Shown: piece after piece, positions 37,430 through 40,353 of the stretch
Numbering within the stretch: position 1 is the first letter of the stretch
Layout: each line of letters starts with the position of its first letter
Assembly: GCA_041640655.1 (NCBI GenBank)
Contig: JBEPZV010000017.1
Coordinates: forward strand, 1-50,734
DNA length: 50,734 bases
Direction of reading: 5' to 3'
Origin: a bacterium
GTDB taxonomy: Bacteria; Acidobacteriota; Blastocatellia; HR10
Translations under genes and position numbers: made by a program
The notes under the pieces: model-generated
The model's database searches: none
What the model saw: the letters and a program-made list of their open reading frames with translations, nothing else
Told to the model about the DNA's origin: nothing

Positions 37430-37520
37430 CCGACGGCGTTCCATGGCTTGTGACCGCTCCGGCGACGGCCTTTAGGTTATCAGAAAAGCCCGAGAAGTTC
37501 AATGGGGGAGGATGGATGTC

Positions 37521-37549
37521 TTGACCATGGCGCGGACTGCCCGTATCAT
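37521..37549 (+). promoter_or_regulatory. Sigma70 promoter of pyrC
   Basis: TTGACC-17 nt-TATCAT, 9 nt before the ATG. Confidence 0.7.
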
Positions 37550-37558
37550 TGCCCCCCG

Positions 37559-38842
37559 ATGCGCGTGGTGATCAAGTCGGGGCTCATCGTGGATCCCTCG
37601 CAACAGTTGGAGATGAGAGGAGACCTCCTCGTGGAAGAGGGGGTCATTCGAGAGATCGCTCCGGAGATCTCGATCGCCGATGCTGACATCTTCGATGCGC
37701 GCGGATGTATCGTCGCCCCCGGATTCATTGACCTCCACGTCCACTTGCGCGAGCCGGGTCGGGAGGACGTGGAGACCATCGAGACGGGCACACAGGCGGC
37801 GGCCGCGGGCGGGTTCACGGCCGTTTGCGCCATGCCCAACACTCAGCCCGTCAACGATAATCGCGCCGTGACGCGCTTCATCGTGGAACGTGCTCGTGAG
37901 GTCGGCGCCGCGCGCGTCTACCCCATCGGCGCCATCACCCGAGGGCTCCAGGGAGAGACACTGGCCGAGATCGGCGAGATGCGAGAGGCCGGCATCATCG
38001 CCATCAGTGATGATGGGCAGCCCGTCATGAACGCTCAGGTCATGCGCCGCGCCATGGAATACGCGCGGCAATTGGAGATCCCTGTCATTGATCATTGCGA
38101 GGATAAGAACCTCTCGGCCGGAGGGGTCATGAATGAGGGCCTTTGGTCCCTGAGGTTGGGATTGAAGGGCATACCCGCCGCTGCTGAGGAGGTGCACGTC
38201 GCGCGAGACATCATCTTGGCCGAGCTCACCGGCGCCCACGTGCACTTGGCCCATCTGAGCACTGCCCTCTCCATTGAGCTCGTGCGCCAGGCCAAGCGGC
38301 GCGGCGTGCGGGTCACCTGCGAGGTCACCCCTCACCATTTCACGCTCACTGAGGAGGCCGTCCGCGACTATGACACCCATGCTAAGATGAACCCCCCGTT
38401 GCGGACAGAGCGCGATGTCCAGGCGATCCGCGAAGCTCTCGCCGACGGGACCATTGACGCTATCGCCACAGACCACGCTCCCCACCATCCCGATGAGAAA
38501 GCGCTTGAATTCGACCGCGCTCCTTTCGGCATCGTCGGTTTGGAGACGGCCGTCAGCCTCGCCTTGGACCGCCTCGTGCATGCGGGCGTGATCAGCTGGA
38601 TGCGCTTGGTCGCGCTGTTCTCGACTAATCCGGCCCGCATCGCTCATCTTCCCGGGGGGACCCTGAAGCCGGGTGCGGTCGCCGATATCACCATTCTGGA
38701 TCCAATGCGCCCGTTCATCGTCCGAGCCGAACGATTCCGCTCCAAGGGCCGAAACACACCGTTTGAGGGATGGCAGCTCACCGGAGCCGTGCGCGCGACC
38801 CTTGTGGCCGGCCGCTTCGTCTATCGCGCGGATACCCCATGA
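37559..38842 (+). CDS. pyrC: Dihydroorotase
   Basis: [36 protein letters not shown]. Confidence 0.96.
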
Positions 38843-38856
38843 GCCGTTCACCCTCT

Positions 38857-39417
38857 TCAGCGCCTTCGCTTCAACATCCGCCGGAGCCGAAGCCGCGCTT
38901 TGTGAAGCTGCGATTTCGTCGTCCCCACGGTGACCCCTAACATCCGCGCGATCTCCTCGTGCCCGTAACCCTCAAGGTCATGGAGCACCAGGATCGTACG
39001 ATAGCCAATGGGCAGCGCCATCAGTGCTCTCTCCAGCGCGATCCGATCTACGATCCGGGACATCCCGTCGTCAGCTCGGTGCGCCTCCAAGAGAGCCTTC
39101 AGCTCCGTGTCATCCATCGGCTCATAGTTTGGCCGCCGCCTTCGAAGATGCATCAGAACCAAGTTCACCGTCAGCCGATGAAGCCATGTCGTGAAGGCCG
39201 AGTCCCCTCGAAAGCTCGAGATCTTTCGATAGAGGTGCAGGAAGACCTCCTGCGTCAGATCCTCCGCGTCCGCTACGTTCCCAACGAGCCGCAAACACAA
39301 GGAATAGACCCGTCGGTGATACGTCTGGTAGAGTCGCTCGAACGCTTCCATCTCCCCTTGGGCCGAAGCCCGGGCTAGCTCCAAATCCGATACGAGGTGA
39401 GCCGCTGCTGTCGCCAT
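38857..39417 (-). CDS. ECF-family RNA polymerase sigma factor
   Basis: Region 2 DAEDLTQEVF...FTTWLHRL; region 4 EEIARMLGVTVGTTKSQLHKAR. Confidence 0.95.
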   Translation of the reverse strand: MATAAAHLVSDLELARASAQGEMEAFERLYQTYHRRVYSLCLRLVGNVADAEDLTQEVFLHLYRKISSFRGDSAFTTWLHRLTVNLVLMHLRRRRPNYEPMDDTELKALLEAHRADDGMSRIVDRIALERALMALPIGYRTILVLHDLEGYGHEEIARMLGVTVGTTKSQLHKARLRLRRMLKRRR

Positions 39418-39446
39418 ATCCCTTCGCCCTCCTGTAGTGCGAAAGT

Positions 39447-39470
39447 GGGGACTCCCACAGGGGAGTCCCC
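39447..39470. terminator. Perfect 10-bp inverted repeat between the micropeptides and the ECF gene
   Basis: GGGGACTCCC-ACAG-GGGAGTCCCC; on the minus strand it is followed by ACTTT, a weak U-tract. Confidence 0.55.
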
Positions 39471-39538
39471 GGAGGAGGTCTATGAAGAAGCTCCTCGCTT
39501 TGAGCGTCGGTGTATACTCGAACTAAGCATCAGACGCC

Positions 39539-39637
39539 TCAGGGCATCGGACACTGTCCAGATCCTAAAAGCGCTGCCAGTGCCAATAGCGCCAAAAGAA
39601 GCGCTGCCAAATCGAGCTGTCCATTTTGGATCCTCAT
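39539..39637 (-). CDS. Hydrophobic micropeptide 2, 32 aa: MRIQNGQLDLAALLLALLALAALLGSGQCPMP
   Basis: RBS AAAGGAGG; paralogous to the neighbouring peptide with many synonymous differences. Confidence 0.8.
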   Translation of the reverse strand: MRIQNGQLDLAALLLALLALAALLGSGQCPMP

Positions 39638-39682
39638 GGTCCCTTCCTCCTTTCTTGGGATTTCAGAAGCCCATTGGGCTCC

Positions 39683-39793
39683 TCATTGCGTCACCCCTGG
39701 GATTGGGCACGAGCCGCCTCCCAGGAGCTGCAAAGCAGCGAGCAACGCCAAAAGCAGCGTCGCTAAATCGAGTTGTCCGCTCTCTCGTCTCAT
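39683..39793 (-). CDS. Hydrophobic micropeptide 1, 36 aa: MRRESGQLDLATLLLALLAALQLLGGGSCPIPGVTQ
   Basis: RBS AAGGAGG; promoter directly upstream; paralogous to peptide 2. Confidence 0.8.
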   Translation of the reverse strand: MRRESGQLDLATLLLALLAALQLLGGGSCPIPGVTQ

Positions 39794-39831
39794 AGCCTCC
39801 CCTCCTTGTTCATTTTTCAAACAGCGCTGTA

Positions 39832-39859
39832 AGTATAGCATAGTTTCTCTAAAAGTCAA
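39832..39859 (-). promoter_or_regulatory. Promoter for the micropeptide pair
   Basis: TTGACT-16 nt-TATACT with an extended -10 TG and an AT-rich upstream tract. Confidence 0.72.
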
Positions 39860-39948
39860 GATGTAAAATTAACAGAAGATTGGTTAACTAAAATTAATAA
39901 AAGCACGCTGTCCCTTGCTGCCGAGTTGTGGCCGTGAAAGGGCACATC

Positions 39949-39977
39949 TTGACAGTATGGGACGCAGATTATATAAT
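39949..39977 (+). promoter_or_regulatory. Perfect consensus sigma70 promoter of groESL
   Basis: TTGACA-17 nt-TATAAT. Confidence 0.85.
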
Positions 39978-40029
39978 TCCAACCGAATCAAGTTTGGGCG
40001 ATGAGAAAATTTCGATGCAGGAGGTGGGT

Positions 40030-40353
40030 ATGGCCTTGAACATTCGTCCCTTGCACGATCGTGTGGTCGTGAAACGGTTGGAGGAAGAGGAGCAAGTCCG
40101 TGGCGGGATCATCATCCCGGATACGGCCAAGGAGAAACCGCAGCAAGGTGAAGTTGTCGCCGTGGGGAACGGGAAGATTTTGGAGAATGGCACCAAGATT
40201 CCCCTCGATGTGAAAGTTGGGGATCGGGTGCTCTTTGGCAAGTATGCGGGTACGGAGGTACGGATTGATGACGAGGAATACCTGATCATGCGCGAGGATG
40301 AAATCCTCGCGGTGATCGAAGTCGCCTCTAAGGCCAAGTCGGCCGGCAAATGA
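40030..40353 (+). CDS. groES: Co-chaperonin GroES
   Basis: [38 protein letters not shown] before ATG 40030. Confidence 0.98.

Follow-up and report, generated by a model that had tools for sequence, protein, structure and literature searches.

What do two neighboring open reading frames (ORFs) of 36 and 32 codons encode in an acidobacterium, and can they be recognized as genes at all? The question is raised by a locus in a 50,734-nucleotide stretch of DNA, referred to below as the window (contig JBEPZV010000017.1 of GenBank assembly GCA_041640655.1, positions 1 to 50,734 of the forward strand), from a member of the order HR10 of the Blastocatellia. HR10, also known as GAL08, is described as an uncultivated hot-spring order of that class (PMC8787282), and the sequencing runs that contain this DNA are mostly hot-spring metagenomes. 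A first-pass annotation of the window had pointed to an unannotated, conserved tandem pair of paralogous hydrophobic micropeptides on the minus strand, each with an AAGGAGG ribosome-binding site and together preceded by a TTGACT-16-TATACT promoter. The ORFs, the binding sites, and the promoter are all present as described there, and, judged by comparison between genomes, both ORFs are genuine genes under purifying selection at the protein level and belong to an order-restricted, previously unnamed family of micropeptides of 32-40 amino acids. Tiny genes are often overlooked; comparative genomics by itself suffices to show that this family is real, under strong selection, and present throughout an uncultivated, thermophilic order. 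The two genes, which share a reading frame and whose coordinates include the stop codon, are as follows.

39683 to 39793, minus strand (39793-39683): micropeptide gene 1 (ORF1), 36 amino acids, MRRESGQLDLATLLLALLAALQLLGGGSCPIPGVTQ; in-frame dN/dS 0.119, orthologs in 7/7 genomes of the genus, covered by a 253-nt RNA contig of library X19
39539 to 39637, minus strand (39637-39539): micropeptide gene 2 (ORF2), 32 amino acids, MRIQNGQLDLAALLLALLALAALLGSGQCPMP; Shine-Dalgarno sequence SD2 at 39652-39646, in-frame dN/dS 0.079, orthologs in 7/7 genomes of the genus, covered by RNA contigs of libraries X19 and X20

Both ORFs lie at the same place in seven genomes of the window's genus, from which ratios of nonsynonymous to synonymous change (dN/dS) were obtained as pooled pairwise Nei-Gojobori estimates. 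The in-frame values given above are close in kind to that of the start of the downstream sigma factor gene in the same genomes (0.069), and the other two same-strand frames over the ORFs give values of 0.94-4.7. Variable sites at the first, second, and third codon positions number 10, 4, and 25 in the 36 codons of ORF1 and 12, 4, and 25 in the 32 codons of ORF2. Between the two paralogs, the proportions of synonymous and nonsynonymous differences over 32 codons are pS = 0.875 and pN = 0.238, which, with the in-frame ratios, bears out the earlier claim that the pair is conserved at the protein level and supplies the dN/dS analysis that had been proposed as a check. On the plus strand, an antisense ORF of 118 amino acids (39510-39866) has lowish dN/dS values over the two peptide genes (0.185 and 0.209) because its wobble positions are common to the peptide frame; over either peptide gene a stop breaks this frame in one of the seven sequences of the genus, and stops also occur in 4/11 copies belonging to other genera. 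Its ends move from genome to genome, and it is read as a shadow of the peptide frame. Long antisense frames of this kind, which commonly shadow GC-rich coding sequence and are a possible source of wrong gene calls, lie opposite the peptide genes (39397-39795 and 39510-39866, plus strand) and opposite pyrC (37499-38851, minus strand).

The locus is also present in RNA libraries. X19 and X20 are metatranscriptome libraries of different studies, represented by assembled contigs that carry no strand information and may include carried-over DNA, so that they indicate presence in the libraries rather than transcript ends or levels. X19 contributes a contig of 253 nt on 39553-39805 with seven differences and another of 158 nt on 39344-39501, which runs across a hairpin into the sigma factor gene, and X20 contributes a contig of 190 nt on 39492-39681 with no differences. 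The bins at 39806-40006, in the divergent promoter region, have no cover in either library, a gap that is not counted as evidence.

The extent of the family was established with a profile (A1) built from 13 members. It matches all 12 genomes of the window's order, with E-values of 1e-12 to 1e-20 and including 8/8 high-quality genomes. Within a class sample of 401 genomes, with scoring confined to the 19 best candidates in each, at most one of the 389 genomes outside the order has a match, namely G022, where the hit is weak (E 0.002 over 23 positions) and contains an in-frame TGA. The profile search that had been suggested as a check recovers the family throughout the order and next to nowhere else in this class sample. 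Copies stand in tandem where there are several, with two in the window's genus, three in G007, and five in G008, and with one each in G009, G010, and G011; a search of the window's genome returned just the two copies described here. Contig C4 of G003 carries a third, distant paralog, MRERGQIDPIMLVLLLMLAFFLIMIVLLLPRPA (L037, 1429-1596), with an N-terminal G-Q-I-D-P and a hydrophobic stretch but without Gly-x-Cys-Pro.

Against 1.84 billion representative proteins the profile gave 10 matches, of which nine are true peptides of 32-38 amino acids and one is an unrelated repeat protein; the latter (P0011, 334 amino acids) consists in part of at least 10 tandem repeats of GQLDPTTLHFPQVE and matched through a G-Q-L-D motif alone. 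A word-based search returned six close relatives, and the sole name on record among them is "hypothetical protein" of "bacterium HR10". Neither peptide is matched by a Pfam family and none of the peptides by an NCBIfam family; the NCBIfam "smalltalk protein" model (E 0.099, 1/13 peptides) and Synerg-CTERM (E 9.9) were treated as chance matches. A feature search of the ESM Atlas with the peptide gave no usable match, and a metagenome scan with a narrowed alignment returned only two near-identical contigs. Searches of the literature, with subscription journals outside their coverage, turned up no account of this family, nor of signal-peptide genes that lack a passenger and precede an extracytoplasmic function (ECF) sigma factor gene, and the family is called undescribed for this reason. 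The first-pass view of an unannotated family with a promoter of its own is upheld.

Across 37 distinct members, to which the residue counts below refer, the consensus is M..q.GQ.Dl..llLalLaal..l..G.CPi.p. One to three basic residues at the N-terminus are followed by an invariant glycine (Gly6, 37/37), a glutamine (replaced by alanine in two members), a variable residue, and an invariant aspartate, and this G-Q-x-D motif leads into a leucine- and alanine-rich stretch of 14-17 residues, or 12-15 in the short copies of G008. All members have a single cysteine, at about position 29, with glycine two residues before it in 36/37 and proline directly after it in 34/37. The tail beyond Cys-Pro is variable and only two to six residues long, so that four to eight residues remain from the cysteine to the end. 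The three residues before the cysteine read SGS in nine members, GGS in seven, SGQ in six, GGA in five, TGA in four, TGQ in two, and SGA, AGT, TGS, and LVG in one each; the last of them is accordingly Ser, Ala, or Gly in 28/37 and Gln (eight members) or Thr (one member) in the other nine. An AlphaFold2 model from alignment A1 places a single helix over residues 10-25, leaves both ends non-helical, and has a mean predicted local distance difference test (pLDDT) score of 69.

A basic n-region, a hydrophobic h-region, and a junction cysteine within about 15-35 residues, which together make up a lipoprotein-type layout, are found in 37/37 members, and a strict lipobox ([LVI][ASTVI][GAS]C) in only one (LVGC). 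A crude scan of the window's genome for lipoprotein-like N-termini gave 11 candidates, with boxes that include SGS/C, SGG/C, GSA/C, and AGA/C (the slash precedes the cysteine), which suggests that a small residue at -3 is nothing unusual for this organism. The lipoprotein signal peptidase LspA (PF01252) is found above cut-off on contig C11 of the same genome. G-Q-x-D before a hydrophobic stretch does not behave as a general sorting signal there: of six raw hits in the genome only the two peptides have it N-terminally, and the other four do not. The n-, h-, and c-regions ending at the cysteine resemble a signal peptide of the Sec or lipoprotein type to which hardly any passenger is attached, and the products are most likely membrane-inserted or exported, in line with the first-pass reading of a membrane or secreted peptide. 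That annotation had recognized the peptide family, but it had noted neither the invariant G-x-C-P junction, nor the ECF sigma factor gene downstream, nor the neighboring gene, in other genera, for a regulator with tetratricopeptide repeats (TPR) and a helix-turn-helix (HTH) domain. The remaining features of the locus, in the direction of the peptide genes, are the following.

39864 to 39897, minus strand: AT-rich tract upstream of the -35 element, with two TTAATTTTA boxes (39897-39889 and 39872-39864); conserved in 7 genus genomes
39832 to 39859, minus strand: sigma-70-type promoter TTGACT-16-TATACT with TG extension; supported by a scan and by conservation across genera
39794 to 39825, minus strand: 5' untranslated leader with a conserved GTTTGAAAAATGAAC tract and Shine-Dalgarno sequence SD1; drawn from sequence and alignments, with the transcription start placed from the -10 element
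39666 to 39682, minus strand: small hairpin GGAGCCCAATGGGCTTC between the two peptide cistrons; stem changes compensated in six genomes (alignment read by eye, without a pair count), deleted in G006
39471 to 39493, minus strand: conserved block GAGCTTCTTCATAGACCTCCTCC, whose CCTCCT is able to pair with the sigma Shine-Dalgarno sequence; near-invariant in seven genomes and partly kept in G007
39447 to 39470, minus strand: GC-rich hairpin GGGGACTCCCC-TGT-GGGAGTCCCC followed by ACTTTC; three pairs with changes on both sides in the window's genus
38857 to 39417, minus strand: ECF sigma factor gene, 186 amino acids, Shine-Dalgarno sequence AGGAGG at 39433-39428; Pfam Sigma70_r2 (1e-21) and r4_2 (2e-17)

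The peptide genes thus stand under a promoter that, read from 39859 to 39832, has 10/12 consensus matches in addition to its TG extension, in a promoter scan that found two sites in total compared with 0.6 +/- 0.8 in shuffled sequence. Across six genomes of five genera, the -35 element (TTGACT or TTGACA) and the -10 element (TATACT or TATACA) are kept in five, together with the AT-rich tract 5' of them and a portion of the 5' leader; G009 deviates. A tract that resembles the AT-rich region of the window, AAATTTTCTTC, stands 5' of the -35 element in G007, G008, and G011, and the tract at 39864 to 39897 is probably an UP element or the site of a regulator. An AAGGAGG sequence lies 7-8 nt 5' of each ATG, as SD1 (39807-39801) for ORF1 and SD2 (39652-39646) for ORF2. 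The region had been described as AT-richer than its flanks, and the dip in GC content is real (0.39-0.45 across 39725-40024 versus 0.58-0.66 in the flanks), but it belongs to the divergent promoter region and not to the ORFs, which themselves have 0.53-0.58. On the plus strand, at 39949-39977, the other site of that scan, a perfect TTGACA-17-TATAAT promoter (12/12) that is conserved in the genus alignment, faces groES-groEL, with a probable groES start near 40030 by NCBIfam alignment.

A hairpin had been reported after each stop codon. The one after ORF1 (39682-39666) exists, though its deletion in one of the seven genus genomes indicates that it is dispensable, whereas that directly 3' of ORF2 is not conserved in the genus alignment; the conserved structure is the GC-rich hairpin further downstream, at 39470-39447. 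A strong hairpin of different sequence occupies the same place in G007, G008, G010, and G011, in no case with a clean T-tract, and the hairpin of the window was not called by a terminator scan because its own T-tract is short. It is probably a leaky terminator or an mRNA-stabilizing 3' stem, and with either of these the peptide message would be abundant and the sigma message scarce. Between it and ORF2, RNAalifold pairs CCUCCU of the conserved block with AGGAGG of the sigma gene, but these pairs never vary, so that covariation lends no support and the pairing stays hypothetical. The block at 39471-39493 is more conserved in the seven genomes than the flanking coding sequence, and on the plus strand it reads GGAGGAGG plus ATG, the start of a mini-ORF (MKKLLALS...) of which the first residues alone are kept; an anti-Shine-Dalgarno element and an antisense start are among the possible explanations of the block. 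Rfam gave no matches over 38800-40100.

The sigma factor is matched above cut-off in NCBIfam by the ECF superfamily model alone. Its gene ends 14 nt from the convergent pyrC (dihydroorotase), which leaves no room for an anti-sigma gene. Each genome has three to six paralogs of this sigma clade at 55-63% identity, for which reason sigma orthology outside the order is uncertain. One paralogous gene, on contig C20 of the window's own genome (L134, 1795-3132, minus strand), is followed by a gene for a 227-amino-acid protein with an N-terminal HxxxCxxC motif of the zinc-finger anti-sigma type, so the clade also uses ordinary anti-sigma partners. When 31 loci of other Acidobacteriota were searched for diverged peptides 5' of related sigma genes, a hydrophobic small ORF was present in L060 only, and this is itself a member of the family. 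On contig C1 of the window's genome (L133, 3052-3300, minus strand), an ORF with a hydrophobic segment overlaps the start of a paralogous ECF sigma gene (ATGA), with a zinc-ribbon-like ORF and a cytochrome b-like gene upstream; as this 82-amino-acid overlapping ORF occurs in just 3/12 genomes of the order, small membrane ORFs before ECF genes were dropped as a theme.

The order of genes around the peptides differs between lineages as follows.

Window's genus (7 genomes): groESL, divergent from the peptide genes, which are followed by the sigma gene and a convergent pyrC
G007: TPR-HTH_8 gene, divergent from three peptide genes, which are followed by the sigma gene and a convergent pyrC
G008: TPR-HTH_8 gene, divergent from five peptide genes, which are followed by the sigma gene
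G010 and G011: TPR-HTH_8 gene, divergent from one peptide gene, which is followed by the sigma gene
G009: TPR-HTH_8 gene, divergent from one peptide gene, which faces a convergent pyrC; tblastn of the 6.8-kb locus finds no sigma gene
Metagenome contigs L140 and L141: TPR-HTH_8 gene, divergent from two peptide genes, which are followed by the sigma gene

The sigma gene is therefore directly downstream of the peptides in 11/12 genomes and on both metagenome contigs. The TPR-HTH_8 gene lies divergently upstream in 5/12 genomes (G007 to G011, representing four of five genera) and again on both contigs, and adjoins the peptides in none of the seven genomes of the window's genus. In the window's genome an ortholog 67% identical to the regulator of G007 is encoded on another contig beside genes of sugar metabolism, and a genome search found no peptide gene near it. 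The regulator (L047, 3983-5449, plus strand; L048, 4564-6027 and 10025-11452, minus strand) has about 480 amino acids with TPR and a C-terminal HTH_8 and no AAA+ domain. No NCBIfam model matches it above cut-off, and Pfam gives generic TPR families besides the HTH_8. Each of the 12 genomes has one ortholog (47-100% identity), and most have extra paralogs at 35-39%. A complex prediction of the regulator (alignment A2) with peptide 1 (A1) reached scores of 0.00 and 0.20, the mark being 0.32, and has no bearing either way. In G010 and G011 the gene convergent to the sigma gene (L013, 4310-5404, and L014, 4322-5416, both minus strand) encodes a 364-amino-acid ABC-transporter ATPase with the C-terminal metal-binding domain of an iron-dependent repressor.

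The reading that we prefer, at a probability of roughly 0.4, is that the products are exported or processed micropeptides of the Sec or lipoprotein type, with almost no passenger and with the cysteine junction as the site of action. The near-consensus sigma-70 promoter would drive one to five peptide cistrons, all of them preceded by strong Shine-Dalgarno sequences, and the GC-rich hairpin would set these apart from the orphan ECF sigma gene, which would probably be expressed at a lower level through read-through. From the layout of the peptide we infer insertion into the inner membrane with the N-terminus in and the C-terminus out, after which the cysteine junction on the periplasmic face may be processed, either by lipidation and cleavage through Lgt and LspA or by signal peptidase I. 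Such processing would have two products, namely a very short Cys-Pro peptide or lipopeptide on the outside and, within the membrane, the conserved remainder of the signal peptide. One of them may be an abundant envelope signal tied to the module of the ECF sigma factor and the TPR-HTH regulator. Several points weigh against this. The n-region with its G-Q-x-D appears conserved far beyond what is usual in signal peptides, and its acidic residue adjoins the hydrophobic core. Gln or Thr at -1 in nine members, among them copy 2 in all seven genus genomes, fits the preferences of neither LspA nor signal peptidase I, and with Leu at -3 in a single member the strict lipobox is for the most part lacking. 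None of the 11 lipoprotein-like candidates of the window's genome has Pro at +2, and we know of no described lipoprotein or secreted precursor in which the passenger has four to eight residues and the signal region is the best-conserved part. A chain of 32-36 residues, moreover, leaves the ribosome before its signal could be read co-translationally, and the RNA support consists of strandless assembled contigs in which carried-over DNA is possible.

The peptides may instead act intact, as single-pass membrane micropeptides (N-terminus in, C-terminus out) whose G-Q-x-D and G-x-C-P ends dock a partner, for instance as small regulatory subunits that tether or gate the ECF sigma factor or the TPR-HTH regulator, or that sense redox state through the single cysteine. 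This possibility, the main rival and somewhat less probable than the preferred reading, would account for a conservation that extends from one end of the peptide to the other and includes invariant residues on either side of the helix, and would make Gln at -1 in copy 2 unproblematic. It would also suit a sigma gene without an adjoining anti-sigma gene, whereas the C20 paralog has a zinc-finger anti-sigma gene downstream, and the succession of many peptide cistrons, hairpin, and sigma gene would give an excess of peptide over sigma factor. The helix, however, has only about 16 residues in the model, which together with the 12-15-residue stretch of the short G008 copies is short for a membrane span, and a cytoplasmic part of 6-12 residues compares poorly with an anti-sigma domain of roughly 80. 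Also against it, the peptide occurs with no adjoining sigma gene in G009 and with no adjoining TPR gene in the window's genus. That same TPR gene invites the idea of a peptide pheromone, in which the Cys-Pro tail would be released, re-imported, and sensed by the TPR-HTH regulator, which would then switch on the peptide-sigma operon, a circuit akin to Phr/Rap or to ComS/ComR with sigma X as its output. ORFs shaped like export signals, divergent to a gene for a TPR and DNA-binding regulator in four of five genera and on two metagenome contigs, would fit such a circuit, as would an alternative sigma gene as downstream output and a tail that is the most variable part across lineages and tandem copies (CPIPTQ, CPIRF, CPISF, CPIALGR, and CSIVP in G008). 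We regard it as unlikely nonetheless: the regulator, with its Fis-type HTH_8 at the C-terminus, has no match among the RRNPP families of Pfam and NCBIfam, and in the window's genus it is encoded on another contig. Conservation is also stronger in the signal part than in the tail, the reverse of known pheromone precursors, and the hosts are diderm. A full cell-cell cascade in a diderm acidobacterium, in which Cys-Pro peptides of four to eight residues are read by a TPR-HTH regulator that drives the peptide genes and the ECF sigma gene, is rated quite unlikely; if true, it would be an independent Gram-negative counterpart of RRNPP and ComRS-sigma X logic, which to our knowledge has been described to date in Firmicutes and the phages that infect them.

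The first-pass annotation had instead raised a class III (prepilin-type) signal, in which a cut after Gly6 would leave a hydrophobic peptide of 26-30 residues with an N-terminal glutamine, perhaps an ultra-short pilin. An invariant Gly6 (13/13 profile members as well as 37/37 members), a nearly invariant Gln7, and an acidic residue at +3 before a hydrophobic helix do recall such a signal, a TadE-like protein of the same genome has G/QSLIE, and the search for prepilin peptidase and Tad genes that had been proposed found both in the window's genome. The peptidase does not discriminate between readings, however, and the TadE and Flp genes are on contig C92 rather than beside the peptides. The sole Flp_Fap (PF04964) hit above cut-off in the genome is a canonical Flp pilin with a G/xxxEY motif (...EKGQG/MAEYALILV...; C92:5316-5450) beside two TadE genes, and the genome also has type IV pilins with Glu at +5, a residue that 0/37 members of the family possess, Asp standing at +3 instead. 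With no Pfam Flp or pilin match for either peptide, no consistently basic residue before the glycine, no pilus genes among the neighbors in six lineages examined (groESL, ECF sigma, pyrC, and TPR-HTH genes), and a fully hydrophobic subunit of 26 residues that would hardly make a soluble fiber, the class III idea is very unlikely. A membrane-active product, whether type I toxin-like, leaderless bacteriocin-like, or surfactant-like, would suit very hydrophobic peptides of 32-40 amino acids, and the tandem copies, each behind a ribosome-binding site of its own, recall the amphipathic or hydrophobic small-peptide arrays of other bacteria. We consider it highly improbable in view of the core synteny that is stable across the order, the near-consensus promoter and strong Shine-Dalgarno sequences, the lack of an antitoxin RNA family (no Rfam matches), and the lack of an adjoining transporter or immunity gene; the type I toxin-like candidate raised earlier is unlikely on the same grounds and in view of amplification up to five-fold. 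Most improbable of all are cis-acting leader peptides, functionless in themselves, whose translation would control the sigma gene by attenuation or stalling. Leu-rich short ORFs followed by hairpins 5' of a regulated gene, a copy 2 that ends in Pro-stop, and a CCUCCU tract able to pair with the sigma Shine-Dalgarno sequence all have this appearance, but the non-Leu residues (Gly, Asp, Cys, and Pro) are under purifying selection at the level of the sigma gene (dN/dS about 0.1), there are up to five copies, conservation of the hairpin and anti-Shine-Dalgarno sequences does not extend from one family of the order to another, and the G009 peptide gene, which stands alone with no cistron downstream, argues against a purely cis-acting role.

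If the products are tiny lipopeptides, signals derived from signal peptides, or minimal membrane regulators, they would be a compact new example of micropeptides that feed envelope or population sensing, and they would offer a handle on the control of an ECF sigma factor that has no anti-sigma partner. The form itself is unusual, being an export signal that carries almost no cargo, is tandem-amplified, and has the genes of an orphan ECF sigma factor and of a TPR-HTH regulator as companions, and the family is a useful test case for signal-peptide predictors near their lower size limit.

Several known systems resemble the family in part. The Phr, PapR, and ComS precursors of RRNPP systems are likewise of no more than about 40 amino acids, with an N-terminal part like an export signal and a short C-terminal active part, and their genes lie beside that of a TPR transcription regulator and are sometimes tandemly duplicated; the output of ComRS is an alternative sigma factor. 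Here, in contrast, the regulator is of the HTH_8 type, has no RRNPP match, and is unlinked in the window's genus, the host is diderm, the signal part is the best conserved, and the tail begins with Cys-Pro (Pro in 34/37). The sex pheromones of enterococci, which derive from lipoprotein signal peptides, establish that a signal peptide can itself be the functional product, but those signal peptides belong to full-size lipoproteins and the present ones have no passenger protein. Flp or type IVb pilins share short, often tandem precursors with a conserved glycine before a hydrophobic helix, whereas the peptides have no Glu5-Tyr6 and no Flp_Fap match, are about half as long, and have no Tad genes nearby. 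In operons of ECF sigma and anti-sigma factors, as probably here, one transcript serves both an ECF sigma factor without other adjoining regulators and a product associated with the membrane; the peptide genes differ in being upstream, in multiple copies, and under a sigma-70-type promoter, and their products in having only 6-12 cytoplasmic residues. The anti-sigma domain, of about 80 residues and often with HxxxCxxC, is absent from peptides of 32-40 amino acids that have one Cys, no His, and no Pfam match.

Tandem small paralogs with an N-terminal signal peptide leading to a cysteine also occur in entericidin A/B and in the lipoprotein microprotein arrays of Leptotrichia (PMC13640731). The Leptotrichia proteins have 48-81 amino acids and their signal region is the variable part (PMC13640731). 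With the entericidins included, these precursors span 41-81 amino acids and have a structured mature part of about 20-50, compared with the three to seven residues that follow the cysteine here; in the HR10 family it is the signal region that is conserved, and the strict lipobox is present in 1/37. The family thus lacks, or shares only by half, the defining features of Phr/ComS precursors, tandem lipoproteins, enterococcal pheromones, and Flp pilins. Its members are well supported as real, and they are most likely small exported or membrane peptides in an unusual form, that of a signal without cargo.

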